From contig JAYRXX010000006.1 of assembly GCA_041917295.1 (NCBI GenBank), positions 16,876 to 80,875 on the forward strand: DNA of 64,000 nucleotides, read 5' to 3'. This document shows, piece after piece, positions 8,199 through 63,000 of this stretch. Under the pieces are notes generated by a model that saw only the letters and a list, made by a program, of their open reading frames with translations, made no database searches and was not told the origin of the DNA. The translations under genes and the position numbers were made by a program. Position 1 is the stretch's first letter. Each line of letters starts with the position of its first letter. Origin of the DNA: Elusimicrobiota bacterium (lineage in GTDB: Bacteria > Elusimicrobiota > Elusimicrobia > FEN-1173).

Positions 8199-8199
8199 G

Positions 8200-32627: not shown

Positions 32628-32660
32628 ACCCCGATTCTACCACGCCCGCCCAGAAGATCC

Positions 32661-32689
32661 CCTTAAGAACTTGTAACAAAACAGTAAAC
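32661..32689 (-). promoter_or_regulatory. Conserved upstream element of giant A: TTTACT-N5-GTTACA-N4-CTTAAGG
   Basis: Same three blocks and spacing as 47451-47478; ends 33 nt upstream of the start codon. Confidence 0.7.
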
Positions 32690-37299: not shown

Positions 37300-37307
37300 A
37301 GGAGATC

Positions 37308-44519: not shown

Positions 44520-45962
44520 GTGAAACAGATCAGTCTGCGGACAAAATTGGTGGCGCACTCGACCCTGCTGGTGTTGGCGGCGGGGACCGGGGTGGGCGTG
44601 TCCCTTTATTTCGCCGAGCGGCAGTATCTGGTCCGCCGGTTCGACCAAACCCAGGAAGACAATGTCACCAGCCTCGTCCAAATCCGCCGCGAGTCGGTGA
44701 CCTCCAACAACGAACAACTGTTGCTCAGCTACCTGTCGTTGCTTCGTCGATCGCGGGCCCTCAGTTACGCCATGATCCAAGACACGACGGGCCGCGTGCT
44801 GTCGCACACAAACCCGGCGTTCGTGGGGCAACGCCTTTCCGACCCGCTGACGCTGGGGGCGCTGGAAACCGCCTCGTTGTTGCGCCAACGGGGCGGCTCC
44901 ACCGATGACGTGATCGACTTGGCGTTGCCCATCGTCCACGGCACCAAACGTTTGGGCGTTGCCCGGGTGGGATATTCCCGCGCCACCATGGCCCAGTTGG
45001 TGGACCAAACGTTGCAGGCGGCCCGACATCGAATTTTGATTGCCACCTTTTTGGCCATGGGGTTCGGCGTGGCGCTGGCGGTGGGATTGTCGTTGTTGTT
45101 TACGAAACCCATCGAGCTCTTGCGCGCGGGGGCCCGAATCATCGGGGAGGGCAACCTCACCCACCGCATTCAGATCACCACCCGCGACGAGTTGGGCGAC
45201 CTGGCCAAAGAGTTCAACGTGATGGCCGCCAAACTTCAAGAACTGGACCAACTGAAACAGGATTTCGTCTCCAACGTCACCCACGAACTGCGGTCGCCGT
45301 TGACGTCTCTGCGCGGGTATGTGGAACTGCTGTTGCGCGAAGGCGCCGGACCGATCAATGAAGAACAACGGGAATTTTTAATCGTCATTAAAAACAATTC
45401 CGTCCGATTGGCGCGGTTCATCGACAACCTGCTGGACGTGGCCAAAATCGAAGCGGGGAAAATCGAATTGCATCCCGAATTCATTCGACTTCAAGATTTG
45501 GCCTTGGAAATGTCGGTGGTTTTTCGGCCCATGGCCCAGGAAAAACGCATCGATTACCGGGTGGAAATGGACCCGCGCCTACGCCCGGTGCGGGCCGACG
45601 CCGACAAAATGCTGGAAGTGCTGACCAACTTGTTAAGCAACGCCTTCAAATTCACTCCCCCAGACGGAAAAGTCACGCTTTCGGCTGTTCCCGAAAACGC
45701 CCACGTTCACATAACGGTATCCGACACGGGCATTGGCATCCCAGCGGAATCCCAGTCCAGCGTGTTCAACAAATTCGAACAGGTGAAACCCACCCAAGGC
45801 CTGGCGCGGAAAACAAAAGGGTCCGGTTTGGGATTGACCATCGTCAAAGGCATTGTGGAAGCCCACGGCGGCCAGGTTTGGATCGAAAGCCAACCGGAAA
45901 AGGGAACCACCGTGCATGTGGTTTTGCCCCATTCCAGTGAGGAGGAGCCGGAGGAGGGATGA
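44520..45962 (+). CDS. Sensor histidine kinase (two TM, HAMP, HisKA, HATPase_c)
   Basis: DELGDLAKEFN (HAMP), THELRSPLT (H-box), NLLSNAFKF, DTGIGIP, GSGLGL. Confidence 0.95.
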   Translation: MKQISLRTKLVAHSTLLVLAAGTGVGVSLYFAERQYLVRRFDQTQEDNVTSLVQIRRESVTSNNEQLLLSYLSLLRRSRALSYAMIQDTTGRVLSHTNPAFVGQRLSDPLTLGALETASLLRQRGGSTDDVIDLALPIVHGTKRLGVARVGYSRATMAQLVDQTLQAARHRILIATFLAMGFGVALAVGLSLLFTKPIELLRAGARIIGEGNLTHRIQITTRDELGDLAKEFNVMAAKLQELDQLKQDFVSNVTHELRSPLTSLRGYVELLLREGAGPINEEQREFLIVIKNNSVRLARFIDNLLDVAKIEAGKIELHPEFIRLQDLALEMSVVFRPMAQEKRIDYRVEMDPRLRPVRADADKMLEVLTNLLSNAFKFTPPDGKVTLSAVPENAHVHITVSDTGIGIPAESQSSVFNKFEQVKPTQGLARKTKGSGLGLTIVKGIVEAHGGQVWIESQPEKGTTVHVVLPHSSEEEPEEG

Positions 45963-46065
45963 ATCATTGCGTCTCCCCATTTTTTTATTCTACGATTGTT
46001 TTGATTTTTTGCGGACTTCGGCAGGGCCACAGAGCGGAATTGGGAATCCATCGCGGAGGACACGT

Positions 46066-46746
46066 ATGCTAAAAAAACGGATCATGGTGGTCGACGACGA
46101 TCGAGACATTCGCCGTCTGGTGGAAAGCATTTTGGCCAAAGAAGGCTTTGTGACCATCGGCGCCGACAGCGGGGCGGACGCGCTCAAAAAAGTGGAAAAC
46201 TCCAAACCCGACTTGATCATATTGGACTTGCAACTGCCGGACAAAGACGGTTTTGAAGTCTGCAAAATTTTACGGTCCGACCCGACCACAAAAACGATTC
46301 CCGTGGTGTTTTTGACGGTGCAAAATTTGGATTCGTATAAAATCGCGGGGTTGGAAATGGGCGCCGACGATTACATCACCAAACCGTTCAACCAAACCGA
46401 ACTGGTGGCGCGGGTGAAAGCGGTTCTGCGCCGAGCCGAATGGCGCGACACCAAAGATTCGCCGGTCAAGGAAGGCCCCTTGAGCGTGGACATGGAAAAA
46501 CACACCGTGATCATGGACGGAAAATCCCTTAACCTGGCGCCCAAAGAGTTTGATTTGTTGCTGACGTTGATGCGCAACCAAGGCAAAGTGTTGACTCGGC
46601 CGGAACTTTCCGAATCGGTGTGGGGCCAAGAGTATTCCAACACCACCCGAACCGTGGATGTCCACGTGGGCCGACTGCGGCGCAAACTGGGAAAACACGG
46701 AGACCGGGTCCGAACCGTCGAACGGATCGGTTACCGCTTCGAGTAA
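46066..46746 (+). CDS. OmpR/PhoB-family response regulator
   Basis: MVVDDD, IILDLQLP, GADDYITKPF; winged helix with RTVDVHVGRLRRKL and TVERIGYRF; GGAGGA RBS before ATG 46066. Confidence 0.95.
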   Translation: MLKKRIMVVDDDRDIRRLVESILAKEGFVTIGADSGADALKKVENSKPDLIILDLQLPDKDGFEVCKILRSDPTTKTIPVVFLTVQNLDSYKIAGLEMGADDYITKPFNQTELVARVKAVLRRAEWRDTKDSPVKEGPLSVDMEKHTVIMDGKSLNLAPKEFDLLLTLMRNQGKVLTRPELSESVWGQEYSNTTRTVDVHVGRLRRKLGKHGDRVRTVERIGYRFE

Positions 46747-46914: not shown

Positions 46915-47295
46915 TCAAATCGGCCGTGTGTGGATGATGTTGTGAATGCTCTGCGCGAATGAAGAATAGCGGACGGGTTTGGCCATGGCGGCTTGGACAT
47001 CGATGGTTTGGAGTTTGCGTTCGTCGGCCCAGCCGGTGACGATCACCACGGGCGTGCCGTTGGTGGCCGGATGGCCGCGAAGTTGTTTTAAAACGTCATA
47101 CCCGTTGACAAAGGGCATTTCCAAATCCAAGGTGATCAAGTGGGGACGAAAATCGATGGCCGCGCGCAAGGCGTCCCGGGGGTCGGTGACACACCGCACT
47201 TCATATCCCATGGACTCGCAAAAGTCCCCCAACAAGTCGGCCATTCCGATATCGTCTTCAATCACCAAAATCCGGCGTGGATCGAGCATGATCAT
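46915..47295 (-). CDS. Single-domain response regulator (CheY-like receiver)
   Basis: ILVIEDD, LITLDLEMP, VVIVTG, MAKPV. Confidence 0.9.
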   Translation of the reverse strand: MIMLDPRRILVIEDDIGMADLLGDFCESMGYEVRCVTDPRDALRAAIDFRPHLITLDLEMPFVNGYDVLKQLRGHPATNGTPVVIVTGWADERKLQTIDVQAAMAKPVRYSSFAQSIHNIIHTRPI

Positions 47296-47370: not shown

Positions 47371-47450
47371 GCGTCTTTCGCCCCTTGCGAACCAATGAAG
47401 CACGATTCCCCCCCCCCCACATTAATTTAATTAACTATGTCCCATGCGAT

Positions 47451-47478
47451 TTTACAATTCCGTTACAAACTCTTAAGG
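47451..47478 (+). promoter_or_regulatory. Conserved upstream element of giant B: TTTACA-N5-GTTACA-N4-CTTAAGG
   Basis: Matches the giant A element; ends 36 nt upstream of ATG 47515. Confidence 0.7.
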
Positions 47479-47514
47479 GAATCTTTAGATTGGTTTGATA
47501 AAATTCCCGTCATT

Positions 47515-50500
47515 ATGAAGCTTTTCTTGCGGATGGTACGGCCTGGCCTTGGGGGGATGATATCGTTTTCTCTTCTGCTTACAGGCCCCCTCGCCCCCCT
47601 GGCCCAGGCCCGAACAGAAGAAAACAAAGCCAATTATTGGACAGCAAGGAAAAGCGTTGCCCGACAACGTTCTCTCCCCACCCAGCCAGTGAAGGCGCCC
47701 TTTCCAAATTCCCCGCACTTAAGAGGTTCCGAGCCGGTAAAGGAAACAAGCAAAAATTGGTTTGAAGTGGCCAGTTACACGCCCGTGTTCGGTCCAAGAT
47801 CCTGGAAGCGGGGCAACGTGCTGGTCCCGTTCGTGACGATCATCCAAGACGCCCACGATAATTACGAAGCCCAACTGGCTCTTAGCCGCACCCTGGCCGA
47901 ACTGGCCGACAAGGAAAAAGACGGCCCCCTCCTGGTGTGCGTCGAAGGCGCCTGGGGGCCCCTTTCCACCGAAATTTTCAAACCACTGGATCCAGAATTA
48001 CGCAAACAGAAAGCCGACCAATTACTTAAGCGTCACATTATCACCGGGGAAGAATTTTTATCAATAGTTCATCCAGGTTTAATTCAACTGGTGGGGGTAG
48101 ACGATCCCGATCTTCATAAAAAGAACACCGTGGCGCGGGAACTGGTGGAAACGCATCGATGGTCCACGACCGAACGAATGAAGATCCTCCAAATCAATAT
48201 GGAGCGATTAAAAAAGGCCGTTTACCCCCCCCGTATGCGATCGATTGATGAAATCAGACTGAAATACCAAACGGGGATATTGAACTCCCAAGAGTTTGCT
48301 AAAAAAATAGTCCCTTATGCCTCAAAAGAGTGGTGGCTAAAAAATTTCCCCCTTTTGTATCAACTCTCATCCCTCGACGCAGATGGTCTGGAAAAATCAC
48401 CAACCCGGGCGGAAATTGAAGAATGGGTGACAACCCTTTCAAACACCGATCTACAAAACAAGATTGATTGGTTGCTTCATCAAAAAAAAATAGACCTACC
48501 CGTCTTGGCCAATGAAATGGAAAAAGCACCGGACCAACTTTTACGGATGGACAAACGGTTTCAACTGTTGGTTGAACTTGATCAATGGATTTCCCTGGCT
48601 GACCGTCTTATTTCCCTCAAAATGACTCCGGAGGATTTGAACCAATTCGATCGGATCGAACCCAGTCAATCCATTGAAGACGTCGCAAACAAAATAAACA
48701 TTATCTCCCGAAAAAACAATGTTCGTGTTTTACCCCTCCCTCAAGCCCGTCGGCCCAATGAAGAAACGACGTGGCAAGCGGCCAAATCATTTTATCGGAT
48801 CGCCAAAAAGCGCGACAACGCCATGGCCACCAACACTCTGCGTCAAGCCAGAAAACATGACAAAAGGAAAGTCGTCCTTATTGCGGGAGGATTCCACACT
48901 CCTGGGATCTCGAGACTCTTTCGTCTCCAACAAAATTTCAACCATTCTCTGTGTCCGAAATTTTCATCGAGCGTAACAAAAGCCCCGCGGCCAACGCTCC
49001 GAAAAAAAAGTCTTTTTCAAAAGAGCATCCCTGAAAACAAACGCAAATTCCGTTTATCCCCAACCCTCACCCCGTTTTTCCGATTTATAGTCTTCATGTC
49101 GATCAGCTCCTTGGCCCTCGCGGCGGGCGGTGGGACCGGATCAGATTGGATTGAATATCTCGTTTTGGCATCCACCATCAGCGACCCCTTTTTAAGGCGT
49201 TTAATATCCCGAAAACCCATAGCCACACCTCCGGAAGAAATATTAATAAACAGTGACGCCGCTGTCGGCAAACTCAAAAATGACTTTTTGGCAATATACC
49301 GCTCTCAAAAGATCCCCGAAGCGATTAAGTTGCTGGACGAAGTTTCTTCTTACAGCGATTTAAGAGCCTATTTTTTATTATCTCTGTTAGAAAAAACTGA
49401 ACAACAAGCACTATTGGAATCAATGCCCCCAGCCTTGAAAAGAAGGGTTTTGAACGGTCTCCCGGACTACGAATATCACGCTTACATCAGAGGGATTGAA
49501 AAAACAATTCAGTGTATTTCTTCCCTTAAAGAAATGGATGATTTGTGGAAAAAGATAATCAGTGACGTGCGAGAGGGTAGTCCAAACAATAAAACTGTTT
49601 TAAGCTACTTAAATGCAATTACAGAAGCAAAAGAACGGGTGAGTATTATTCTTAACAAACTCGAATCACAAGTGGCCTCTCTTAAATCCATTGCAAGTGA
49701 CCCCGGTTCAATTCCCAAATTAATCCCTCCACAAGAAACAACCGATTTTATTTTAACCAGAGTAAATCCAGCGCTTAATACGAGAACCATTGCCCATGGG
49801 CATCTTTATTCAATCTTTTCTCATTTGGAGTACGCAGAAAAATGGTTGGGAACCAAATTGAGTCCGTTCGGAGGGATGGCCGCCTTTGGATTGGGTAGTT
49901 CGGGATATATTAACCGAACGCCACCCGCTCCAACGGCGCTGGAGTCTTCCGTTGCATCTTTACACCTTGCCAACGGAGCGAAAGAACGGTTAAGAGACGA
50001 ACTCTACTTTCTGAGGCACCCCGAAGCCACCTACCGGACTGTCCATCAAGACTGGGTGGAAACGATATCCAACGCAACCCGTCAAACAAAAATTAAGGAT
50101 TTAAAGGCACTTTCTCCCCGATCCAGAGATGATGATGAGATGGAAAGCGAGCGCTTAAAAAAAATTGAGTCCTTTTCCCACCGGATGGGAAATGGAGTCG
50201 AGGATCTTTCATTAAAGGCTCAAGCCTTTCTCGAAACGATTGAGGGGCCGCCTTGGAGTTTAACGCAATCCCATTATTTGGCTGAACTGGAGAGAGTCAG
50301 CGGCTATTTTGAGGGACCGGTTCTCGACCGACGAGCAACGGTTGTCCTTCCCAACCCATCCGACATTCAACTTTTTGCTTCGGATTTGGCGGTCCTCTAT
50401 CGTCATCAAGGCAAGGCAAAAAAACTCGTGATATTGGACATTGGTCGCATCCAAACAAGCCATCACGACCAATCCTCGATTGAAAATTTTTTGACCGCCT

Positions 50501-53500
50501 TACTGGCTGAAGCTAAGGAACGCGGGAATGTCATGATCCTTGTGGATATGGAGGGGGTCCAGGGGGAAGGGAATCGAACCTATTTGCACCTGATGGAACG
50601 ATGGAGGGTGGAAAATGATCAATCCCTGGCTCCGGACTTGATAATTTTGTCAAGCGAGCGAACATTCACATTTCACCTACAACAAGATGCACTCAAAAAG
50701 GCGGCTCCCACCTTCACCGTAACGATGAAGGATCCCGCCCGCTTAACCACGCGACGTTTGGACGCTTTTCAGGAACGGATTTCGGCTCAACTTGGGATTG
50801 TATTGGAACACCCGCTTGTTGAAGCCTGCGTCACACGATTATCAAGCTCCGACCGATTTGGAGTTGTAGACAGATCCATTAAGCTTTTAACAGACCTCGC
50901 TTTGAGGGTACAAAATGAGCGCCAGCCTGTGACCTCCCCCTCGCTCGAGGACTTATCAGGATCAGCCGACCTCTTTTCTGAGGAAACGGGTGAACTACCA
51001 CTTGAATTAAGAGCTGTCGCCAGATTGGATGTCATGCCCCCGGATTCCCAGATAACAGTGAAAAAAAAACTCGCCGAGCTCAGCAACCTACGAATAACAG
51101 ACCCAAACAGCGAACGGATAGCCGATATTGAACGTCTGATCGATACGATAATCAGTATTCCTTGGATTGAAATGGCCCCGCCCATTGTTTCCCGCGATGC
51201 CCCGAGGGAAATTCAAGACCAGCAAATAGAAGAACTTTACAACCGATTTGAAGAAAAATTGCGTCAAAGCCACACCGGTCTCGAAGAAAATGTCGTTCAG
51301 GCTCTGAAAGATTTACTTGGCTTAGTTATTCTTAGTGACATCGGCAGGGTCCCCCCCACCACCAATATTCCGACATTGGTGGGCCCTCCCGGGGTGGGCA
51401 AAACCGCGCTCATGCAACTGCTTGGGGAAGTTACAGGCCGCCCAGTGTATCGCATCTCAATGAATACGATACAAGATCCCATGAATCTTAAAGGCAGTTC
51501 TCCCACTTTTCTTCACGCGAAAGAAGGGCGCTTGGTCGCAGAGTTAATTGGGGGAGAACCACGGGTCGGGAATCCCATTTACTTCCTCGATGAGCTGGAC
51601 AAAACACCTCCAGCGGTACAAACAGTTTTTCTTGATGTCGGCCAAAGTTACTTGCGTGACAATTACGCCGGGATGGTCTTTGTTGGGAACAGTCTCTTTG
51701 TTGCCACAGCCAATCATCTCGAAAATGTAATTGCTCCGCTTAGAAACCGCATGGACATTATCCCCATGCCCGGATATACACTGAGGGGAAAAACGAACAT
51801 TGCAACTCGAAACACCCTTCCCCGGGCCTTGGCAAAAAACTTTTTAAGCGATGACCCCGGAAACGGACATCAAGAAGTCGCGTTCAATAATCGGCCGGCC
51901 GTCCTTCAATTCCTAGCTCAAGGCTACGCCCGAGAAGAAGGGATGCGACACATGATCAGACTCATCGACAATATCCTGATCGAAGCCTACGCTCTTTACA
52001 TTAAAACGGGCAGACCCACTCTCATTGATGAAAAATTCGTCCGATCTATTCTAGGGGCGCCGATCGAATTTCTGAGAATACCCAAACAAGACCCAGTCGG
52101 GAGAGCGTATTTTCCCCATCCTTCTGGGAATCTCATTGACACACACGCAATCCCAAAATCCACTATATCGCCTTTGGCGGGACGGTCGGCTTTTCTTGAA
52201 ATGACATTACCCGTTGAACTGTTGCTCAACGAACACGGCCCCGACTGGACAAAGAATATCTGTGCTCTATTTGATGGTAAGAGAGATTCAATCGCTCCGA
52301 TTTCCAATCTTCAAATTGACGTTCCGCGCGTGGTCCAGGAAGATGCGGCGGCACAACTGGCCATGGCGATCGCAACCCTTTCCAAGGCAACGGGGATTCC
52401 TGTAAAACGGGAAATGGCGTTTATCGGGGAAATGGACAACCGAGCCCGCGTTGTTGCCGCAACGAAACTTCGCCAACGAATCTTGGTTGCCTACGACGCC
52501 GGCGCACGTTGGCTGGCCATCCCTCACGGAAATAAGAACGAACTGATGACCAGCCTGTTTCCTGCGATGGAGGCCATCCGAGGTCCTATTTTGGAACCTC
52601 CCGTCAACGATGGCGAAGAATGGACAGTTTACAGGCCTCGGCAGGGGAATATCCCTTTTGTTGCCGATAAGGGGCCTCTTGAATCTGTTTTGGCGTTGGC
52701 GGAAGGAGAAATTTCAATGGCACCCTCGGAATGTATCTATGTATTAGTTCGTACCGTTGAAGACGGTTTTTCCTTGGCGTTTGCCAAACTGGGTCGGCAG
52801 TCTTTCAAGGAGAATCCCCCTTCACCAATTGACATTATCCCACCCCAGGAAAAAACAAAACCAGCGGTAAGTGAACTTACCCGTCCCTTTGAGAAATTTC
52901 CGGAGCTTCCCACCCGGGTTTTGGAGTGGAACATCAACGTTAATGGCCAGTTGGTTGACCTTCGTAATCTTTTTAGAAATGGCCTAACAGAGGAAGCTCT
53001 CTCGCTCATCCAAAATATTACTCAAACAATCGCATCAACGGGTTCACTGGATTCAATCGCACAACTTGAAGCCTGCGCGCGTTTTTCCATTGCCCAGAAC
53101 GACGGTGCCGCCTTTGTCGATTTCTTGTTAGGTCTTGACCCCACGACACGATGCCGTATCATCTCGGTTTTTTCCCCAGAAACCCTGGGGACTCTTGTCC
53201 ACCTCAAAGGGGCGTCAGGTTACCTAACAGAAACCGCGCGATGGGAAGCGAATTTAATAAAAATTCAGTCCACCCTGGCATCGATAAAAAATAATTCCGT
53301 TCAGCGGAAAGACGTTATCGAAATTCAAGATATGTTAAGCGTGCCGGGCGCTTTCCCCCCCTTGTTTAGAGAAGGCGGCAGTTATTATACGATCGTAGGC
53401 CTAAGAGCGGCGATCGATAATTATCTTTATCGGGAAGGTGGAATAGACGATATGAAGGCCCATATGGAGGAATGCTTAGAAATAGGAATTTCTTGCCTCA

Positions 53501-56500
53501 ATAAATACAGAACAGTCCTGTCATACAATGCAAACCCGACAGGCCTTCTTGCTGTAAAAAATGCCATGGACCAAGCCTTGACCGAACTAGCTGTTTTTCG
53601 ACCACTGTTTTTAAGCCCCGATGAACTTGGGGGTCAAGATCCGGAAGGAAGTTGGCAAGTATACATGGCCAACGAACACCTGCGCCAAGAAACACTGAGA
53701 GGATCTTGCCGGTTTATCCCCTTAGAAGATCTTCCAGCCAGCGCAGGAATAGATTCCCCTGAAAGCAACGTCTGGCATGCCCTTTTCGGGGTCCCATTTG
53801 AACGATTTGTTGAAGTATCAAACCGGGATAATCATAAGGTGATGGTATTGACAGGTTGCCCCCCGCTCCTTCGAAACGCTTGGGCTTCCTATTTGAATCG
53901 GAACCTTTGGAAAGTGGGATTGCCTCAGCGAATAATAAAAATTGACGTTTCAAAATTATTGGAGAGCAATTATCGATCAGGAGAATCGACCGAATCAAAG
54001 TGGCCGCGATTGAAAAAAACTCTTGAGGCCGCGCGAGATTCGGGAAATATGGTGGTATGGATCGACTTGGACTTTCTTCCTCCCTCCGCCCCGCCGTTTC
54101 TTATTTCGCGGATTATGCGGTTATTCAATCAAGGTTCTGGGCAAGCGTCTGTCATTTTTACCGGAGAAGAATTCGTGCACCAAAACCTTGTCAATTCCTC
54201 ACCCGTGTACGCCGGGGGGGTGACCCACCTATCAATCGGTGAAGAAAACCGGGAAAACCTTCTTCGATTGGAAATAATTGAGCGGGAAAAAATAACGAAA
54301 GTCCAATACCCCGCTCCCGTCGTAGAGCATCTCTGCGAAAAAGTGCGATCCGGATCCGTTAGTCTCTCTCTTGCGCGAAGAATTCTAGACCGAGCCCACT
54401 CTCCTTCGGGCGAACCCCTAACTCCGGCTCTCATTGATTCAACACAAAAGGGGATCGATCTGGAAAATGATCAAATGCTTCAGTGGGCAACTTTGTGGGA
54501 ACAGTTTGAGTTCATATCTGGAAAGATGCCTAAATCAGCTCGCAAGCGGGCAATGACCCTCTTTGGCCAATTCCGAAAAGCGTCAGGGGACGAAGCGGCG
54601 GCCCTTGAGAATCAAATTAGAATTATTATCGAATTCCCCTGGGAAAAAAGAGCTCCCTCACCTATTCCCCGCCTGCCGCCAAATCCCCAACCTGAGGATT
54701 ATAAAAATCTTGAATCGATCATTGCGGGACAGATCAACACTGTAAGAGAGGAACTTGATCGATCCCATCATGGAATGGATCGGGTTAAAGAGCTGATCAT
54801 CAATTACGTACTGAGGGATTCGCTTGCACGCGCGCACACTGGGAAAGGAGTTGGGAAACCTCTCTTGGTCGTGTCCCACCCAGGACAGGGGAAAACCACC
54901 CTTGCTGAGTCTGTTGCCCGGGCATTAGGGCGACCATTCATATTCATTCCCCTGGGTGCGGTAAAACACACCGAAGAGCTCACAGGGTTCGCTTCCCAGT
55001 ACGTCAATTCTGACGCCGGGTTGCTGATAAAAGGAATGATAAGAGCAGGCGCATTGAACCCGGTCATGCTATTAGACGAAATTGACAAAATGGGTGGGGG
55101 CGAAACGAGTCCAATAGATTCGATTCTTTCCCTCACTGATCCCGAACAAAATGAAAAATTTCGGGACGAATATCCCCAAGTCGATTTTCCAATGGACGAA
55201 CCATTGTATTTTGCAACCGCGAACGATATTGAAAAATTACCTGGACCCGTCAGAGACCGATTTGAGATTATAGTTCTTCCCCCTTACACGCAACAGGAGA
55301 AATCAGCCATCCTGGTTGATAAAGCCCTGCCTGAACTCATGGAAAAATGGGAAACCAACGATCGCGTGACAGTGACGAATGCCTTCCCCATCGCGCAAAT
55401 CATCCTATCGATCGTCCAGGAACACGGGGTGCGACTTGCCAAGGCAAAGATGTCCACGCTGATTTTGAGATCGCTCATAGAATCCCACTTAACGCGCACC
55501 CCCATCGAAATAACGGAAGCTGTCGCTCGAAGACTATTAAGGATATCGGAACCCCCACCATCCGCCGAAATCGTCTCCGCCCGTGTTGGAGAAATTAACG
55601 GCCTTGTCTACAACGAGGCCACCGGGGAGGGCGCGGTACTGGGAATTCATGCCAACTTACACAATTTGGGGGGAGACGAACCCTTCCGATACGTGGGAAT
55701 TGGACGCCTCGGCCCATCAATGAAAGCAAGCCTTGATCGCGCGGTCGCCCTTGCCCAAGTCCGTGCTCAAACGATGATCCCTTCCCTCAACCTCAATGGA
55801 AAAGTTCTGACCGTTTTGGTCACCAAACAAGACGTTCAAAAGGACGGAGACTCAGCCGGTGTGGGCTTTTATTTCGTGGCGCTCTCCGCATTGACGGGAG
55901 TTCCGGTAAGCCAAGACATTGCCCTTACGGGAGCGATCTCCCCATCGGAAGGAGCGATGCAAGTTGGCGCCATCGAGGCAAAAGTATCTGCGGCAATTAA
56001 CGCAGGAGTGAAATACATTTTCATTCCAACCGAAAACAGGGATGTGGTTGACGGAATCGTTCGCAGCAATGGGACAAACATAACGCTCGTTGAAGACCTG
56101 ACCGAAACTAGCTTCCCCTTCACCCTGCGCATTCCCAGACTGTTGTGGAGTCCAGGCCTTGAACTCCGCGCACAGGCGAATCTTGAATCTTCGGTTGAAC
56201 AGGTGGGAATGGCCAAGAATCAGATTTCGTTTGAAAAAGGAGTGGCTGTCATCCGATGTTCCGCTAGTCAATTGAAAGATTTCTCTAAATCGAACAAACA
56301 CTATTCAGAACCACCCACATTGGTCCTCTATCCTGATGCAAATTTAATCGAAGACCGCGTGCTTACCAAAAACAGTCCCAGGGGGACTGACATCAACATG
56401 CGGGATCTTCGAAATGGGTTTATCACGCCCCAGTTCTCCATCCTTCTATTCTTCTTCACTGCCCTGGCCATCGGGCTCCCGATTGGGTTCGAAATCAGCC

Positions 56501-56991
56501 ACTTTATACATTGGGCAAGCACCCACATTTGGTACGTCATCTCGGCCGTCCCTGTTCTAATATTGTCATTTTTCACCCCCATAATCATTTCGCGAATCAT
56601 TAGTCGAAGAATCCCCCCCGCTTCAGGCCCATTAATAGAGGCAAACGGAACCATCCGATTTACGGATATTACAGCGTGGGAAGTAATGGTTGATTTAAAC
56701 AGCCTGGCGAGAAAAAAAGCAGACAATGAGATCCTACGAGTTATTGAAACAGCCATCTCCCAAATTGAGGCCACTCGTTTACTCAACACAAAGGACCCGA
56801 TTTGGAATAAATTATACCCGCATTTAAAACATGGGCCTGCGTCTTATTCCAGGCGCAACCTCATCGCCCTGCTGGAGCAAGCAAACCCCGAACTTAGTCA
56901 AATCGAGATTATTCCACCAAACACAGATCACGTTCAAAGTGTGATCTCACAATTTCTTAACACACAACACGCCAGATTGATTCAAACATAA
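47515..56991 (+). CDS. Giant B: about 3158-aa membrane-anchored protein with a TIKI/TraB-like N-module and two tandem (Clp-like pseudo-AAA + Lon AAA+ + Lon protease) units
   Basis: Signal-like MKLFLRM...LAPLAQA; Walker A GPPGVGKT (51382) and SHPGQGKT (54874); Walker B FLDELDK and LLDEIDK; KDGDSAG (Ser 55852) and GAIEAK (Lys 55981); start moved from 47437 to 47515 on signal-peptide and upstream-element evidence. Confidence 0.9.
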   Translation: MKLFLRMVRPGLGGMISFSLLLTGPLAPLAQARTEENKANYWTARKSVARQRSLPTQPVKAPFPNSPHLRGSEPVKETSKNWFEVASYTPVFGPRSWKRGNVLVPFVTIIQDAHDNYEAQLALSRTLAELADKEKDGPLLVCVEGAWGPLSTEIFKPLDPELRKQKADQLLKRHIITGEEFLSIVHPGLIQLVGVDDPDLHKKNTVARELVETHRWSTTERMKILQINMERLKKAVYPPRMRSIDEIRLKYQTGILNSQEFAKKIVPYASKEWWLKNFPLLYQLSSLDADGLEKSPTRAEIEEWVTTLSNTDLQNKIDWLLHQKKIDLPVLANEMEKAPDQLLRMDKRFQLLVELDQWISLADRLISLKMTPEDLNQFDRIEPSQSIEDVANKINIISRKNNVRVLPLPQARRPNEETTWQAAKSFYRIAKKRDNAMATNTLRQARKHDKRKVVLIAGGFHTPGISRLFRLQQNFNHSLCPKFSSSVTKAPRPTLRKKSLFQKSIPENKRKFRLSPTLTPFFRFIVFMSISSLALAAGGGTGSDWIEYLVLASTISDPFLRRLISRKPIATPPEEILINSDAAVGKLKNDFLAIYRSQKIPEAIKLLDEVSSYSDLRAYFLLSLLEKTEQQALLESMPPALKRRVLNGLPDYEYHAYIRGIEKTIQCISSLKEMDDLWKKIISDVREGSPNNKTVLSYLNAITEAKERVSIILNKLESQVASLKSIASDPGSIPKLIPPQETTDFILTRVNPALNTRTIAHGHLYSIFSHLEYAEKWLGTKLSPFGGMAAFGLGSSGYINRTPPAPTALESSVASLHLANGAKERLRDELYFLRHPEATYRTVHQDWVETISNATRQTKIKDLKALSPRSRDDDEMESERLKKIESFSHRMGNGVEDLSLKAQAFLETIEGPPWSLTQSHYLAELERVSGYFEGPVLDRRATVVLPNPSDIQLFASDLAVLYRHQGKAKKLVILDIGRIQTSHHDQSSIENFLTALLAEAKERGNVMILVDMEGVQGEGNRTYLHLMERWRVENDQSLAPDLIILSSERTFTFHLQQDALKKAAPTFTVTMKDPARLTTRRLDAFQERISAQLGIVLEHPLVEACVTRLSSSDRFGVVDRSIKLLTDLALRVQNERQPVTSPSLEDLSGSADLFSEETGELPLELRAVARLDVMPPDSQITVKKKLAELSNLRITDPNSERIADIERLIDTIISIPWIEMAPPIVSRDAPREIQDQQIEELYNRFEEKLRQSHTGLEENVVQALKDLLGLVILSDIGRVPPTTNIPTLVGPPGVGKTALMQLLGEVTGRPVYRISMNTIQDPMNLKGSSPTFLHAKEGRLVAELIGGEPRVGNPIYFLDELDKTPPAVQTVFLDVGQSYLRDNYAGMVFVGNSLFVATANHLENVIAPLRNRMDIIPMPGYTLRGKTNIATRNTLPRALAKNFLSDDPGNGHQEVAFNNRPAVLQFLAQGYAREEGMRHMIRLIDNILIEAYALYIKTGRPTLIDEKFVRSILGAPIEFLRIPKQDPVGRAYFPHPSGNLIDTHAIPKSTISPLAGRSAFLEMTLPVELLLNEHGPDWTKNICALFDGKRDSIAPISNLQIDVPRVVQEDAAAQLAMAIATLSKATGIPVKREMAFIGEMDNRARVVAATKLRQRILVAYDAGARWLAIPHGNKNELMTSLFPAMEAIRGPILEPPVNDGEEWTVYRPRQGNIPFVADKGPLESVLALAEGEISMAPSECIYVLVRTVEDGFSLAFAKLGRQSFKENPPSPIDIIPPQEKTKPAVSELTRPFEKFPELPTRVLEWNINVNGQLVDLRNLFRNGLTEEALSLIQNITQTIASTGSLDSIAQLEACARFSIAQNDGAAFVDFLLGLDPTTRCRIISVFSPETLGTLVHLKGASGYLTETARWEANLIKIQSTLASIKNNSVQRKDVIEIQDMLSVPGAFPPLFREGGSYYTIVGLRAAIDNYLYREGGIDDMKAHMEECLEIGISCLNKYRTVLSYNANPTGLLAVKNAMDQALTELAVFRPLFLSPDELGGQDPEGSWQVYMANEHLRQETLRGSCRFIPLEDLPASAGIDSPESNVWHALFGVPFERFVEVSNRDNHKVMVLTGCPPLLRNAWASYLNRNLWKVGLPQRIIKIDVSKLLESNYRSGESTESKWPRLKKTLEAARDSGNMVVWIDLDFLPPSAPPFLISRIMRLFNQGSGQASVIFTGEEFVHQNLVNSSPVYAGGVTHLSIGEENRENLLRLEIIEREKITKVQYPAPVVEHLCEKVRSGSVSLSLARRILDRAHSPSGEPLTPALIDSTQKGIDLENDQMLQWATLWEQFEFISGKMPKSARKRAMTLFGQFRKASGDEAAALENQIRIIIEFPWEKRAPSPIPRLPPNPQPEDYKNLESIIAGQINTVREELDRSHHGMDRVKELIINYVLRDSLARAHTGKGVGKPLLVVSHPGQGKTTLAESVARALGRPFIFIPLGAVKHTEELTGFASQYVNSDAGLLIKGMIRAGALNPVMLLDEIDKMGGGETSPIDSILSLTDPEQNEKFRDEYPQVDFPMDEPLYFATANDIEKLPGPVRDRFEIIVLPPYTQQEKSAILVDKALPELMEKWETNDRVTVTNAFPIAQIILSIVQEHGVRLAKAKMSTLILRSLIESHLTRTPIEITEAVARRLLRISEPPPSAEIVSARVGEINGLVYNEATGEGAVLGIHANLHNLGGDEPFRYVGIGRLGPSMKASLDRAVALAQVRAQTMIPSLNLNGKVLTVLVTKQDVQKDGDSAGVGFYFVALSALTGVPVSQDIALTGAISPSEGAMQVGAIEAKVSAAINAGVKYIFIPTENRDVVDGIVRSNGTNITLVEDLTETSFPFTLRIPRLLWSPGLELRAQANLESSVEQVGMAKNQISFEKGVAVIRCSASQLKDFSKSNKHYSEPPTLVLYPDANLIEDRVLTKNSPRGTDINMRDLRNGFITPQFSILLFFFTALAIGLPIGFEISHFIHWASTHIWYVISAVPVLILSFFTPIIISRIISRRIPPASGPLIEANGTIRFTDITAWEVMVDLNSLARKKADNEILRVIETAISQIEATRLLNTKDPIWNKLYPHLKHGPASYSRRNLIALLEQANPELSQIEIIPPNTDHVQSVISQFLNTQHARLIQT

Positions 56992-57012: not shown

Positions 57013-60000
57013 TTAGGCATCCGATCCGATCCGTTTCATGGCTTTCAGGTGATTGTGGATCTCTTCAATCGGCAAGCGCAGGCCCAGGGTGAGCACGTCT
57101 TTGCCCAGTTTTTCCCACGTGGCTTTGTCTTGCAACACCGTCGTGTCCGCCGGGGTCGCGCCGATCATCTCCGGGATCAACGACGTCAACACATTGAACC
57201 GAATCACCCCGCCTTTCACCGCCCCGCGGCGATCCAACAGATCTTTCTCACCGAACACAATGGACCCATTGGCCGCGCCTTTGGCCAACGCCCCGCGAAC
57301 CTTTAGCATATCGTCTACCGACAAACCGTTGTTCACCACCAGAATCTTCAATGTTGATAACTGAGCGTCGTCCAACCGGGACGCCGCAAGAGCCCTCAGT
57401 TTCTGGACCGCATCCTCGTCCACCCGACCAGTGGAGATCAGGTCCGTCGCCGCCACCAGCACCAGCGACGTCTGCGACTGTCGAATCGCTTCATTCATCA
57501 GCGCCTTTTCCATTCGGCCCTGGTAGAGCTGGCCCATCCAGTATTCGCTGTTCGTCAACCGCGCATACCGTTCCCCCATCACCGTCACAATCGAATAGCT
57601 CAACCACGCCCGCCGCGCCATCGCCGGCGTCAGTTCCTCAATTTCTCGCAACAGCCCCAACAAGCTCAGATCCGCCAATTCGTTCGGCATCGAAGAACTG
57701 ATTCGGTATTGAACCACCATCTCAGACGCACCGCCCGTCACTCCGTACCGAGCCAAAGTGGGGATATGTCCCACTTCGTGCACCAACCGGGCCATCACAT
57801 CTCCCGCTTCCCCGTTGCGCACGTGGACCACATACCCCTCTTCGTTCGCCACCACAAACGCGTTCGTGTGCGACTCCGTGTTCCTGTGCCCCTCGGCCGC
57901 CAAAATCCGCTCAAAACTTACAGAATTTTCATGCAACACCACCCTCACCGGCGGCATACCCAAGGGAGACATTTTCAATTTCTTTTCTGATTCCAGCATC
58001 TTTTTCAACATCCCTTCCGCCGCCTCTTGCGCCTGAGCCTGTGTTAACCGCGCCCCAACAGCACCGGTCACTCCCAGAAGGCGATACACCCGTTCCGGCA
58101 ACACACCCGTCTCTTTCTCCAGCTCAGCAATCCGTTTCTCCAGGCTCGCCAACAATTCTCCTTCACGCGTCGGCACACCCATCTGCTCAAGATACCGCGC
58201 CAGCCGCGCCTCCGCCAGAATCTCCATTAACATCGGGTCCATCGCCTGTAGTTCCGGCGCCAACTGATGCATAAACTCCACCGTTCGTTGACGCAGTTGC
58301 CCCTCCCAACTCAACCGGCTTGCGCGCCCACTTCGAACCGCCCGGTTTGCCGCCTCTATCATTTCGTTCATCTGCTTCACGGTCAACCCCAACGTCTTCC
58401 AGTCCGCGTCCTCCGGCAACACAGCCGACAACGCCAACGCGTTGGCCACCGACGTGTTCAAGATCGGGTTCCCTTCCGCTTCCATCCCAAGGAACCCTTC
58501 CATGTCACGTCCTTGTTCAACCGCCTCCCGCACAATTTCCCCCACCGTCCTCGTCGCGATCAGTTTCAACCCATCCCGCGTCACCTGCGCTTCTTGAACT
58601 AACCCGTTGGGCATGACTCGAAACGCCACAACCCTCTTCCCCGACGCGTCCGAAATAAGCTGGAATTCAGGATCCCCCATCGCTCCAGGAACACGCTGTT
58701 GTCTATTAATGAACTGGATAAACGCCGCCATGTCCGCAACCGAACTATTCACTCGGTTTCCATCCAATTCCAAGTTCTCATGAATGTGCAACGTCGGGCC
58801 GGTAACAGCAGGAACCTGAACACCCCCGCTGACCGTCACCTGCCCAGCCACAACCGCAGGCTGACCATTCTCTCCAAACACCGCCACCTGGTTCGATCCC
58901 AATTGGCTCGCGAATCCTGGGTTCGCCGCAATCCACGCCGCGGCCGCCACTGCCCGCGCTGCCGCACGACCGGGCACTCTTGAACCCAATGTCGTTATCC
59001 CCGATTGTTCACCGATTTCCTTATTTAATACCACAGCACGAACCAACTCTTGCCCAACCATTTTGCCTGTTTCCACAAACCATCCTTTCGGCAAACTCCC
59101 CATGTTATAAACCATGTGGGCCACAGTCGTCACGATTGTCCCCACCACAGGCCCCGCCACCACGGAGGAAGCCAAAATCAATCCAACTCCAGCCCCAAAC
59201 AACCCAAACCGCTTGCCGAACTCTTGCGCGTCTTGAACCAATGCCCCCCGATCGAAAACGGCCGACCACCCGCCTCGACCTCGATCCGGGTTCAATTGCC
59301 CGTATCGCCCATGCCATTCCGCGAAAGTATGGGCCAGAGCAAAACCCAATCCCACCAAAACCCCCACCTCCCCCAACCCGGCCAAACTCGACAGGTCACC
59401 TGCAAACACCATTTCCTTTGCTCCCCACAACCACGTTTCCAAGAACATCAGCCCTTCAACGATCGGGCTCACAACCGCAACAACCCCCAAATATCCCAAC
59501 CGTTGCCCAAGGGAACCCTCTTTCCAATCCCGCAAATAAGCTTCAAACACAGACGCGACCGATCTCGCTCCGCTCGCCGTCGCACCCGCGTTTCGCTCGC
59601 TGGCTTCGGGACCCTTGGGTTCATCTGGTGATCTAGGATTTGATACTTCTCCTGTCCCGGAGTTCGGTGGAGCCTCCCCCTTTGCCAGCCTCTGAATCAT
59701 ATTCCAAATAGAATTGGTAGCTCCTGGTCCTTCCTGACGCAACAGATTATCAATCTCTTTAGGATAACCGGCATTATCGGTCAAATCAAACATGCTCCCA
59801 GTCAGCCTATATGGCGGATCCCCAAAGACACCGCCCCTCTTCTGGTAATTAAATGGAACTTGGTCATTATTGCCAAAAGAAACATTGATCCCCGGCCTTT
59901 TTTCTCCCTGGGTCAGGCCTGCGCCGGAGAAACTCCACCCATCACCAGCTCGATCGTGCCATCCCCATCCCTCTTCCGGCCTTTCCGTTCCTCCACTCAA

Positions 60001-63000
60001 CTCCACTTCCCGAACCGGTAGATTAACCCTTTCAATCGTCGGTACGGACAAGACGGCTTCCACTCCTCCATCAGGCTCTTGCCAATTCCTTGATTCAGCT
60101 TCTCCTTGTTGGGCAATTTCTTTCGCGTTTGCTTTTTCTCTTTGCGCTGATAACGCCTCATTTCGCTCCGCGGGTATCGACTTCGCGAAAGCCAACATGG
60201 AATCCAGCTCTCGAACTTTCGCTTGAAGAGTTGCCTTTGTTTCCTTCAATTTATCGATTGCGGCTTTGGCTTCCCTTAATTCGTAAACTGGCTGTCCAGG
60301 CGTATCCAATTGAGCAGTCCCTGATGGCATCGCTCGAATCTGCTCTTCCAATTTGCTCACATAAGTTTCATTTTGATTAATCCCAACATCAATTCGGGAA
60401 ATACGTTCCCCAAGACCTTTGATGCCTACTTGTAATTTGGCCTTATAGGCCCGAAGCTCACTGGGGTTCATTTTTGACACCCGGTCTACCTGATCGAGTT
60501 TAGCCACCGCACTCAACTGGTTAAGGGCATTTCCATATTTTTGATTTAAATTGTCCACACCATTACCGGGACCATCAGCCGATTGAGCGCTGGACAGTGA
60601 AGCCAACTCTTTTTGACCCATAGCTTTTATTCTTGATCCCGCCAAAGATTCAACTTGGGCTCGATGAGCAAAGGAACCCTGAGTTTGAGCCGACTCCCCT
60701 CGCCAAAGCGTTTCGGCCAATGCATTCGCCTCGCTTTGAACATTTCCATCCATCGGAAGGGCATTCAAAATTACGGATCTGACCCCATCCGCACCGAGAA
60801 ATTCCCCATACTCCAACACGCTGGCCCCATAAAATGTCAGGAACTCTTCTAGGCTGGCACTCGCCAATGGCGTCGTTCGTTCATTCATCTCCCGGATCAA
60901 CTCAAACTGAGCTCGCACTACTTCGGGCTGTTGCAAAACCTGGGTGACGTTCATCTGCCCCTTCTCGGTCTCGGTCGAATCGTCATACAAGATCTTTGCC
61001 TCTCTCGTATCGGTCACGCCCCGCGCGGTGGCCGCAAGTTCCATAACCGTTTCCCAACTGACGCCCGTGGACGCACTTACCTCATTGAGGTCAGCGAGAG
61101 TCCAATCGCCCTTCGCCTCCAACTTAGTCCATTCGCTAGCGGCTTTCCGGTCAGAATCCCAACTCTTGCTTTGAACCATCGCACGAGCTTGACCCACAAC
61201 CGCCGTCACCACAGGAGCGACAATCATTCCCGCCACACTCCCAATCGCCATAAAACCCGACACAGCATATGTCGCAATAGCCCCAACAGCGGGTCCGCCA
61301 TAACTCATCATAAATCCTTTGTCCGAAAACACAGCCCCCCATCCTTCCGTCCTCTTTTTCTGAGCCATATTCCTAAAAATGTCCACCGGGGATTTGGCTC
61401 CTGGGGCAAACGCGTTAAAGGCGCCCGCTAAGGCCATAACCGGGATCGCCATTGCGGATCCGCTTAGTAACAACACCCCTCCTAAAACCGTTCCAGCCAT
61501 GCCCGCCCCCTGGAACCACTTGCCGTAAATGCCGTTTGTTATTTCGTCCACCTTGGCGGAAAAAGCTTTGGGATCATTCCCCTGCAAGGAAACAAGCGTT
61601 TGGAGGTCACGCATCTTGGCCCCTCCAACGAACCGCGACGATTGACTACCCAAGTTTTCCGTCAATCGGGTTACCAGATCCCGCGCAGGGGAGAATGAAC
61701 TCGCTTCCAGGACTTGACCCTGGACATTCACACGGTCGGAGGCGACAATGTTTGGTAACTCATCGCTAAGTGGTATCCCTTGATCTGTCACTATTTGGGC
61801 CGCGACGTCTGCTAATACGTGGGCCGCTTGTTGAGCGACGTTTGACAGCCCACCGGTTTTTCCGCTCGAATTAGGGACATTACTGGCGACCTGGGCAACA
61901 GACCTCACGCCTTCGACCAAGGGCGTAACCTGCCGGGCCAATGTTTCGGTCATCGTCATTGGGCCAGAATAGGCCTCCGGATGCGCGTCCAAATCCGCCG
62001 CTTCAGAGAAAGCACCTTCCAACCCTCGATTAACGACTCCCGCGTCCAAACGGTCAGCCATCCGACCCAACATCTCACCCAACCCCATTTGGTCACTGGA
62101 TCGATCTTTTTGAGCAATCCCTTGGCTAATCTGAACGAGCCACGGGCTTGCTGAAATCATCCCTCCAAACAAGGAAGAGGACAGATCCGCCCATCGGTAC
62201 CGGGCTTCCTTTGCAAATCCTTCCAGGGCATGCACGAATCCAGTCGCCCCTTGGGATTTCTGGGCCGAAGAAGGAACGGAGGTCACCGCAGAGGCGAGAT
62301 GGGTAATAACGCGCGCTTCTAAGGCCGTTTGGGCTCGAACGTCCAAATCCATATCCTTAAACCCTGTCAGCAGGTCCGCCATGTTCCCAAGGACGCCCCA
62401 GTTGGCGGCGTTGTCCGCATTAGGACTTGCGTCCCATCGGGGGGTCCAGCCGGTCAGAGCGCCAACCATCTGATGAACCTGGTCCATATTCCCTTCGGCT
62501 CCCAAAGCCGAGAACGCCTCTCGGGCGAACAGGGCCACCTCAGCTCCAAACCCGTTGGCCACCAGGTTTTCCGATTGGCGTCCAATGGATTCAACCATGG
62601 ACTCGCCCTCAAAGAAGTTCACACTCGAATCCCTCATTAATCTCGCCGCGGTCCACAACGTATCCGCCACGGCACCGATATCGCCATCCATCCCGTCGCT
62701 CAGCTGGTTGGCAAGATCAAACAAAGCGTTTTCCACCCATGGGATATTCAACATCGGTGCGTTATTTATGTTCACCTGCGCCATGACCTGATTGACAATG
62801 GCCACATTCACCATTTTCTCGGCATTGTTTCCGGCTCGCGCTTGCAACTGCGATGAGGCACCAGAATATTTTGTCACAGTTACAAATTCCCCTCGCCCAA
62901 TCGCTCCCGACACAAATCGTTCTGCCGCTTCCATGAATCCCAAATTGCTGTCTTTAGTCGTAAACCGATCCGTTCCAGATGCCGCACTTAGGCGGGACTT

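Follow-up and report, generated by a model that had tools for sequence, protein, structure and literature searches.

A giant Elusimicrobiota membrane protein with two tandem Lon units and a single intact protease dyad per chain

Introduction

Few AAA+ proteases have been studied as thoroughly as Lon, whose accepted form is a homohexamer with a single module in each chain. A different arrangement is encoded in a stretch of 64,000 nucleotides from an Elusimicrobiota bacterium (GCA_041917295.1, contig JAYRXX010000006.1, positions 16,876-80,875 of the forward strand), referred to here as the window. An open reading frame (ORF) on its plus strand, Giant B (47437-56991; 3,184 codons plus stop, frame unbroken), carries two full LonA-type cores, each with a helical bundle, an AAA+ ATPase and an S16 protease domain, in one chain. 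The gene, which is genuine and conserved, belongs to an Elusimicrobiota-like lineage and encodes an inner-membrane protein of ~3,160 amino acids (aa). The reading that we favour, with a probability of about 0.55, is that this protein is a membrane-tethered, cytoplasm-facing ATP-dependent protease whose two units cooperate in one ring.

Along the chain, a signal peptide is followed by a domain with a weak resemblance to the Ere and ChaN proteins, a hydrophobic helix, the duplicated units, a hairpin of two helices and a tail of 128 aa. Translation very probably begins at Met27 (ATG, nucleotide 47515), which would give a protein of 3,158 aa, because the first 26 codons of the ORF almost certainly represent translated non-coding DNA, codons 5-26 belonging to a conserved 5' element that is described below. 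Residue numbers follow the 3,184-codon frame throughout, in which Met27 is the likely first residue.

Two Lon units and their catalytic status

A preliminary description of this DNA had proposed two tandem Lon modules within a single chain, and alignments to Pfam, NCBIfam and the Protein Data Bank (PDB) support that proposal. The Pfam models AAA (E 8e-28) and Lon_C (E 9e-28) each match in two stretches, and the NCBIfam model TIGR00763 ('lon') matches in three (E 2e-112), yet Giant B lies under the LonA equivalog cutoffs (TIGR00763, 377 vs 608 bits; PRK10787, 315 vs 891 bits). In the PDB sequence search, unit 1 (aa ~1205-1710, nucleotides 51049-52566) aligns over aa ~1205-1705 with residues ~266-~744 of E. 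coli and Yersinia Lon (E 1e-33), a span that takes in the helical bundle, AAA and protease domains of the Lon structures, while unit 2 (aa 2390-2890, 54604-56106) aligns with Lon sequences over aa ~2430-2890 (E 1e-60). A direct comparison of unit 1 with unit 2 gives 26% identity across 520 aa (E 3e-24). The motif strings quoted at the outset are all present where they had been placed: in unit 1, SIPWIE (1240), SHTGLE (1278), GPPGVGKT (1316), NPIYFLDELDK (1379), LFVATAN (1420) and PLRNRMDII (1434); and in unit 2, EFPWEK (2399), SHHGMDRVKELI (2443), SHPGQGKT (2480), NPVMLLDEIDK (2541), YFATAN (2591), PVRDRFEII (2604), KDGDSAG (2802) and GAIEAK (2844).

The protease domains differ in their catalytic residues. 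In unit 2, KDGDSAG and GAIEAK are in register with Lon, and the Ser2806/Lys2849 dyad (nucleotides 55852-55854 and 55981-55983) is intact, its members 43 residues apart as the preliminary description had noted. Unit 1 reads QEDAAAQ in place of the KDGPSAG, and TKLRQR in place of the GGLKEK, of wild-type Yersinia Lon, which puts Ala1638 (52348-52350) at the Ser679 position and Arg1681 (52477-52479) at the Lys722 position. Because these residues replace the Ser-Lys dyad, unit 1 is a Lon homologue but a predicted pseudoprotease, its protease domain catalytically dead in the Giant B clade. The initial view of two Lon proteases therefore stands as far as homology is concerned, and fails for the catalytic site of unit 1. 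The conserved Arg at the Lys722 position hints at some retained role.

The ATPase motifs are kept in both units, including Walker A and B, the sensor-1 Asn, the Arg finger and the sensor-2 Arg (GPPGVGKT, DELDK and RNRMD in unit 1; SHPGQGKT, DEIDK and RDRFE in unit 2; TAN in both), as is the aromatic residue of pore loop 1 (Phe in unit 1, Tyr in unit 2). Giant B apparently combines two competent Lon motors with a single live protease site per chain.

An inactive D1-like domain ahead of each Lon core

The preliminary description took the Lon core to be the repeated unit; the core is indeed repeated, but the repeat begins ~240 aa earlier, with a degenerate AAA+ domain that resembles the first AAA+ module (D1) of Clp proteins. 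The ~650-aa stretches ahead of each Lon core were compared with hhalign, using profiles from six homologues, and the ~240 residues directly before each core were found to be homologous (probability 73%, E 3e-5, 222 columns). In unit 1 the domain spans aa ~966-1162 (50332-50922) and is recognised by profile, model and structure search; in unit 2 it spans aa ~2136-2340 (53842-54456), being recognised by hhalign against the unit-1 segment and forming part of the shared alignment. The profile of this segment matches the D1 domains of ClpC, ClpB and ClpE in the PDB (best E 4e-4, ClpC D1), and its AlphaFold2 model (mean predicted local distance difference test score, pLDDT, of 79.5) retrieves ClpC, ClpA and ClpB D1 with Foldseek (probability 1.00, E 3e-6; 117 matches at E<=1e-3). 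The P-loop (GxxGxGKT) has been lost, being replaced by LPNPSDIQLFA in unit 1 and by LTGCPPLLRNAW in unit 2, and in the Walker-B region (VDM in unit 1, WIDLD in unit 2) the Asp is the only invariant Walker residue. Profile and model thus indicate that a P-loop-less AAA+ domain with the predicted Clp D1 fold precedes each Lon core.

The demonstrably duplicated part amounts to at least 740 aa, and comprises the D1-like AAA+ domain, the LonA helical bundle, the Lon AAA+ ATPase and the S16 domain. With the region in front of it, each unit is laid out as ~400 aa without a match, the inactive D1-like AAA+ domain, the Lon helical bundle, the Lon AAA+ module and the S16 domain. The two leading regions, X1 (aa 566-955, 49132-50301) and X2 (aa 1711-2135, 52567-53841), gave no match in Pfam or in PDB sequence searches, and their profiles do not match each other significantly (hhalign probability 3.6%). 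Since a crude neighbour-joining tree of core-family sequences splits unit-1 and unit-2 sequences into separate clades, the internal duplication is, judging from the sequences, ancient and older than the divergence of the core family. The D1-like profile yielded no match at E<=1e-3 in a collection of 5.8 billion proteins, known family members included, presumably because the candidate list was saturated, a result that is uninformative on the existence of single-unit 'D1*-Lon' proteins.

A family of tandem-Lon giants

The homologue search recommended in the preliminary description proved productive, as the tandem-Lon architecture, with the same two-unit order, recurs in about 12 proteins of 2.6-3.9 thousand residues, down to ~25% identity. 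A whole-protein search of the 5.8 billion proteins gave the full-length relatives P0002-P0005 (62, 47, 39 and 34% identity, that of P0002 extending over 100% of the length) and the more distant P0008-P0012 (3.3-3.9 thousand residues), in which two Lon modules are ordered as in Giant B. A scan of 1.84 billion representatives with unit 2, performed without filter, added P0064 (2.6 thousand residues), which lacks the N-terminal domain, and P0073 (3.3 thousand residues); among the best 150 unit-2 matches, complete tandem Lon cores occur in these giants only. Family members come from JGI, Logan, ENA and NCBI assemblies, and those that carry a source name are from Elusimicrobiota metagenome-assembled genomes (MAGs), in which they are labelled only 'AAA family ATPase' or 'ATP-dependent Lon protease'. 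An alignment of five D1-like sequences matched only one GTDB representative genome, that of Elusimicrobia bacterium JADKCG010000005.1 (locus L003, 3953-14000), in which the tandem-Lon gene is split into four consecutive ORFs on the same strand (2265, 565, 219 and 215 aa); this probably reflects long-read indel error rather than a pseudogene.

The division between a dead unit 1 (Lys to Arg) and a live unit 2 holds in P0001-P0008, P0064 and P0073. In P0010 it is reversed, unit 1 being live and unit 2 dead, and one intact dyad per chain is found in each clearly aligned member of the family. P0011 shows a further form of decay: its unit 1 retains GKT and DEIDK and has lost the dyad, while its unit 2 retains KEGPSAG and the Lys and has lost the P-loop, the Walker-B Glu (HNIDK) and the sensor-2 Arg. 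ATPase and protease thus survive in different units of P0011, so that a working ATP-dependent protease would need both units in one assembly. This complementary decay, as read from the residues retained, is the strongest argument, albeit an indirect one, for cooperation between the units as opposed to two independent enzymes.

Membrane topology

The signal peptide and the hydrophobic segments that the preliminary description placed on either side of the two units are recovered by hydropathy (Kyte-Doolittle scale; aa 38-57, 544-565 and 2998-3056, the last comprising segments 2998-3021 and 3031-3056), and all signal-peptide and transmembrane (TM) calls given here rest on this scale and on homologue alignment. 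The predicted Sec-type signal peptide (47515-47610) reads MKLFLRMVRP, GLGGMISFSLLLTG, PLAPLAQA, with a 14-residue hydrophobic core and predicted cleavage after Ala58; the hydrophobic region, followed by GP[LI]AP[LF]A[QE]A, is kept in P0001-P0005 and P0008. TM1 (aa 544-565, 49066-49131) is a predicted stop-transfer helix (hydropathy 1.69), and is followed by a weakly hydrophobic stretch at aa 571-587. Beyond unit 2, a C-terminal hairpin (56428-56604) consists of TM2 (aa 2998-3021), a 9-residue loop and TM3 (aa 3031-3056), with hydropathy of 2.2-2.3; it is kept in the six aligned members P0001-P0005 and P0008, and Arg residues border it at both outer ends, the loop being free of them. The C-terminal tail (aa 3057-3184, 128 aa; 56605-56988), which is predicted to be cytoplasmic, gave no match in Pfam or NCBIfam family searches.

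Because of the Arg flanks of the hairpin and the ATP requirement of Lon, unit 2 and the tail are best placed in the cytoplasm. The most economical topology would consist of a periplasmic N-terminal domain, TM1, ~2,430 cytoplasmic residues, the hairpin and a cytoplasmic tail.

The N-terminal domain and the wider giant superfamily

The N-terminal domain (aa ~120-510, 47794-48966), predicted to be periplasmic, is defined by an AlphaFold2 model (mean pLDDT 82.6; an alpha/beta core with a large helical insert), by Foldseek and by motifs that are invariant across 14 aligned members, namely IQDAH (within 135-140, IIQDAH in Giant B), EG (170-171) and GGFH (484-487). The best Foldseek match is EreC (6xcs; probability 0.87, E 0.023), with a template-modelling score (TM-score) of only 0.22, and PF04187 (ChaN/Tiki) matches at E 0.0018, its 18.7 bits being under the 27.7 cutoff; the profile of the domain against PDB sequences gave sub-threshold EF-hand noise only. 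An erythromycin esterase/ChaN/Tiki (TraB)-like fold, typical of a superfamily with conserved His, Glu and His positions in the active site, is a lead suggested by these comparisons.

About 50 further giants (1.8-4.9 thousand residues) from Omnitrophota, Elusimicrobiota and other MAGs have N-termini that match residues ~130-520, and their cargo, as identified by Pfam, includes phosphomannomutase (PMM), enolase, phosphoglycerate kinase, SecA, CsrA, glycogen synthase and phosphoglucose isomerase, among others. Each of the 63 proteins from the whole-protein search has the motif GG[FYW]H, as does Giant A, a second giant encoded in the window. As recognised by these motifs, the HIQDAH...GGFH domain heads at least 63 giant proteins, Giant A included, and Giant B fits this superfamily, in which an N-terminal hydrophobic signal and a ~400-aa domain (IQDxH, EG, GG[FYW]H) precede variable cargo.

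Giant A (26988-32627, minus strand; 1,879 aa) has a signal peptide and a HIQDAH...GGFH domain like those of Giant B, followed by many hydrophobic segments. It has no Pfam match, and its strongest matches are to giants with PMM and lactonase cargo, for example P0053 (E 7e-78). It is of note that many PMM-type members of the superfamily (P0017-P0045) carry an N-terminal hydrophobic segment only, on the Kyte-Doolittle scale. At face value this would mean that ATP- and sugar-phosphate-dependent enzymes are exported, the same localisation puzzle as in 10.1101/2023.11.21.568195.

Comparison with known systems

The units align with LonA (MEROPS S16; E. coli Lon, 6u5z) over the C-terminal end of the helical HI(CC) region, the AAA+ module and the protease domain, and unit 2 shares the Ser-Lys dyad with its 43-residue spacing, the pore-loop aromatic, the Arg finger and the sensors being kept as well. 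Giant B differs from LonA in having two cores per chain, a protease-dead unit 1, a signal peptide, membrane anchors and an inactive but complete D1-like AAA+ domain ahead of each core; the N-terminal substrate-binding domain of LonA (PF02190) has no match at E<=1 anywhere in the protein.

As ATP-dependent proteases at the cytoplasmic face of the membrane, LonB and FtsH offer a working analogy for what Giant B may do. In LonB, however, a membrane-bound archaeal Lon that lacks the LonA N-domain, the TM helices lie inside the AAA module, whereas those of Giant B precede unit 1 by ~650 aa and follow unit 2 by ~110 aa, and no hydrophobic segment was found within either of its AAA modules; TIGR00764 (LonB) scores 74 bits against a cutoff of 517. 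FtsH, unlike Giant B, is a Zn metalloprotease with N-terminal TM helices. Nor does Giant B fit LonC, whose AAA-like domain is devoid of ATPase motifs, as Walker A and B are intact in both Lon AAA modules, and LonC structures (4fw9 and relatives) match only ~60 residues of the protease domain.

The position of a D1 fold N-terminal to a second AAA+ module recalls the class I Clp/Hsp100 proteins (ClpA, ClpB, ClpC). The D1-like domain of Giant B differs in lacking a P-loop and so cannot be an ATPase, and neither an M-domain nor a ClpP-docking loop was identified. Rotanova et al. (2019) proposed a LonA-ClpB relationship in which a first AAA+ module was lost from LonA, leaving the HI(CC) region behind (PMC6722904). 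Because a whole D1-like module precedes each Lon core, the units of Giant B recall that proposal.

The best-scoring relatives of unit 2 outside the giants are multi-AAA Lon-like proteins, such as P0065 (MFC1854773.1, Candidatus Dependentiae), which score 280-376 bits vs ~200 for ordinary LonA. They share repeated Lon-type AAA+ modules with Giant B, and differ from it in having a single protease domain, two or three AAA modules and no giant N-terminal domain. This group (P0065-P0123) consists of uncharacterised proteins of 0.9-1.4 thousand residues, in which the two or three Lon-type AAA+ modules precede the single Lon protease domain, and scores nearer to unit 2 than ordinary LonA does.

Mixed rings with paralogous or protease-dead subunits are found in the mitochondrial m-AAA protease (Yta10/Yta12), in the type A/B FtsH of cyanobacteria and chloroplasts, and in the Ycf2-FtsHi complex, while engineered single-chain ClpX pseudo-hexamers demonstrate that covalent linkage of AAA+ modules is compatible with function. 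In all of these, as is proposed for Giant B, one ring is built from two related kinds of subunit, some of them inert. They differ in that the subunits come from separate genes or have been linked artificially, whereas Giant B is a natural fusion with a Lon-type protease.

The giants of the Omnitrophota and neighbouring phyla are likewise very long, bear signal peptides or TM segments, and embed normally cytoplasmic enzymes, among them phosphoglucomutase (PGM)/PMM and SecA domains, whose localisation puzzle has been discussed (10.1101/2023.11.21.568195; 10.64898/2026.06.07.730766). The published ones, however, have at least 10 thousand residues (West-Roberts et al. 2023; Nielsen & Lui 2026), as opposed to the 3.2 thousand and protease cargo of Giant B, and neither preprint mentions Lon domains. 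A link to anti-phage defence through Lon-like proteins (BrxL, CARF-Lon) was considered and dropped, as PADLOC gave only domain-level matches of ~70 residues (BrxL, 33 bits); there are no BREX or CRISPR neighbours within the window.

No Pfam or NCBIfam model describes a tandem Lon, and none was found in the searchable literature on tandem or duplicated Lon or on Lon giants of Elusimicrobia, in line with the earlier statement that the architecture is unreported. We have found no prior description of a natural tandem-Lon design, the new elements being the covalent asymmetry, the link to D1 and the membership in a giant superfamily.

Proposed mechanism and alternative explanations

In the mechanism that we favour, the N-terminal domain would reside in the periplasm, and the ~2,430 residues between TM1 and the hairpin would lie in the cytoplasm, tethered at both ends. 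Units 1 and 2 would act within one ring-shaped, ATP-driven unfoldase-protease, which would degrade or process proteins at the cytoplasmic face of the membrane, as FtsH or LonB do, and whose expression would probably be under the adjacent two-component system. The simplest such ring would be a pseudo-hexamer of three chains, with live protease domains alternating with dead ones and the inactive D1-like domains forming a capping tier. Such a three-chain assembly, already raised in the preliminary description, is plausible, and gains indirect support because the units degenerate in complementary fashion in relatives, notably P0011. A bolder version can be put forward only tentatively: the chains would be natural 'half-rings', three of which form a three-tier pseudo-hexamer (inactive D1, Lon ATPase, protease) with labour divided between a unit that is live as a protease and one that is dead, or, in some relatives, between a unit with ATPase only and one with protease only, and would represent a living intermediate between Clp/Hsp100 and LonA.

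Several points weigh against the favoured mechanism. The mixed ring was chosen by parsimony only, and alignments are uncertain for the most divergent units (unit 2 of P0009 and of P0012). TM1 is only moderately hydrophobic, with a weak second hydrophobic stretch behind it, and its flanks break the positive-inside rule (the net charge is +4 where the periplasm is presumed to be and -2 towards the cytoplasm), so that its orientation is uncertain; if TM1 were itself a hairpin, the signal peptide and the cytoplasmic Lon units could not both hold. Several members of the wider N-domain superfamily have no TM segment past the signal peptide, on the same crude scale, the Ere/ChaN assignment of the domain is weak at the TM-score given above, and no fold could be assigned to X1, X2 or the tail in the searches described.

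A less probable arrangement, which deserves consideration all the same, involves six chains, in which unit 1 and unit 2 would each form its own homohexameric ring beneath the membrane, either side by side or in a coaxial stack. The unit-1 ring, dead as a protease, would serve to unfold substrates or to gate their entry, and degradation would take place in the chamber of the unit-2 ring. Canonical Lon rings are homohexamers, PDB hexamers are among the matches, the 425-aa X2 together with the D1-like domain offers ample linker length, and pore loops and ATPase motifs are kept in both units of most members. In P0011, however, each such ring would be incomplete, one having a live protease without ATPase and the other an ATPase without protease, and in stacked rings both a protease chamber and an AAA ring that are dead would lie in the path of the substrate; the swap of the dead unit in P0010 is also awkward for a fixed top and bottom. 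A self-processing polyprotein, whose modules would be freed by cuts that either the live S16 or the hydrolase-like N-terminal domain makes in the chain, seems improbable. Birnavirus VP4, a Lon-like Ser-Lys protease, does cut its own polyprotein, and the long spacers X1 and X2 separate the modules of Giant B. Processing by embedded peptidases has also been proposed for Omnitrophota giants (10.1101/2023.11.21.568195). Full AAA+ motors with conserved pore loops would nonetheless be needless for cleavage in cis, and conservation of the anchors at both ends and of the dead/live pairing argues for an intact chain; no conserved site of cleavage came to light, although no search was aimed at one.

It is even less likely that the protein is mostly exported, lacking a true stop-transfer segment, with Lon modules acting outside the producer or in a partner or prey cell. 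The conserved signal peptide, the weakness and inverted charge bias of TM1, the related enzyme-cargo giants with an N-terminal hydrophobic segment only, and the linking of Omnitrophota giants to predation, with enzyme domains predicted to be extracellular (10.1101/2023.11.21.568195), would all fit such a scheme. Lon ATPases nevertheless require ATP, of which there is none outside the cell, the strongly hydrophobic hairpin with its outer Arg flanks fits a cytoplasmic location of the part that precedes it, and no secretion-system or toxin-delivery domain was found in Pfam, NCBIfam and PADLOC searches. The suggestion, made in the preliminary description, that the modules are released or delivered into another cell accordingly finds no support, since the flanks and the need for ATP place both units in the cytoplasm of the producer. 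Hardest of all to sustain is an assembly or gene-calling artefact that joined separate lon genes, for which the metagenomic source and the split into four ORFs at L003 might be invoked. The preliminary description had named such a misassembly as a concern, and the architecture is kept in independent assemblies: about 12 proteins of 25-62% identity, drawn from a variety of samples and sources, share the two-unit order, and the frame of Giant B is unbroken and matches P0002 over its whole length. Collapse of a repeat is impossible, because the units are only 26% identical. A tethered protease with cooperating units remains the reading to which we return below.

Genomic context and the 5' element

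Upstream of Giant B, on the same strand, lies a two-component system (44520-46746) that consists of a sCache_3_2-HAMP-HisKA-HATPase kinase and an OmpR-type response regulator; a kinase/OmpR-type pair is upstream in four loci (the window, L001, L002 and L003). Between this system and Giant B, and divergent from the latter, is a gene for a single-domain CheY-like receiver (46915-47295, minus strand), and the same receiver gene, of 124 aa, also adjoins the homologues in L001 and L004. Downstream, Giant C (57013-63954, minus strand; 2,313 aa) is convergent with Giant B and has no family match. Its synteny with the tandem-Lon gene is kept, homologues being found downstream in L001 (66-78% identity) and in L004 (46%, within a gene of 12,587 aa), and it is possible that Giant C is functionally linked to the tandem-Lon protein, for example as a substrate.

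The 5' element that is read as codons 5-26 of the ORF track (47451-47514, plus strand; TTTACnnnTnnGTTACAnnnnCTTAAGGnnAnCTT and then a TGnTAAAAT -10-like box) is a stretch of ~60 nucleotides conserved at the DNA level in five loci, directly before the signal-peptide codons. It lies outside the called gene in L002, L003 and L004, and is read through in the window and in L001. Besides the copies at Giant B and in L001-L004, others are found upstream of Giant A (32658-32688, minus strand) and in L005 (2348-2382, minus strand). The box TGnTA[AG]AAT, which follows TTTACnnnTnnGTTACAnnnnCTTAAGGnnAnCTT, stands 6-10 nucleotides ahead of the start codon, and this spacing suggests near-leaderless transcripts from a putative promoter box within the element. 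A direct repeat within the element, TTACAA-N5-TTACAA, places its two halves one helical turn apart, a geometry typical of the sites of OmpR-family regulators. A role as a regulator specific to giant genes was considered and rejected, as a metagenome scan gave only two further copies, one of them before a MiaB/RimO-like housekeeping gene; the element is probably a promoter/operator typical of the lineage.

Other features of the neighbourhood may be recorded. Eleven consecutive C (47408-47418), absent from the equivalent region of L001, stand in the 140 bp that separate the CheY-like gene from Giant B; homopolymer tracts of this kind can cause slipped-strand variation. In L001, the locus of the closest relative, an AbiEii/AbiEi toxin-antitoxin pair (8147-9828), absent from the window, lies between the receiver gene and the tandem-Lon gene. 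The G+C content of the giant genes (0.41-0.51; 28001-30000 and 48001-56000) is below that of the flanking housekeeping genes (0.55-0.59). Elsewhere in the window, a cysteine/sulfite cluster of the sulfur-carrier type (33132-38666, minus strand) encodes a 743-aa fusion of a JAB domain and a sulfite reductase (NIR_SIR), a CysM-like enzyme dependent on pyridoxal phosphate and a ThiF-rhodanese protein, with an IS200-like Y1 transposase ORF (36307-37299) lying within it.

Implications

If a tethered protease with two cooperating units is indeed what Giant B encodes, the natural fusion of diverged Lon units would constitute an evolutionary experiment in subunit asymmetry, a subject approached so far mainly through engineered, linked ClpX rings. 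It would raise the questions of the number of live ATPase and protease sites that a ring requires, and of whether dead sites serve a structural or allosteric purpose. The inactive but intact D1-like domain would bear on the evolutionary link between LonA and Clp/Hsp100, and should the intermediate reading hold, it would provide direct evidence that the HI(CC) region of LonA is all that remains of a first AAA+ module (PMC6722904). The double tethering and the periplasmic, hydrolase-like head, which dozens of giants with enzyme cargo share, would further suggest that Elusimicrobiota and Omnitrophota have a common means of attaching cytoplasmic enzymes to the membrane, and the tandem-Lon family, at about 3 thousand residues, would offer a tractable entry into the biology of giant bacterial proteins.

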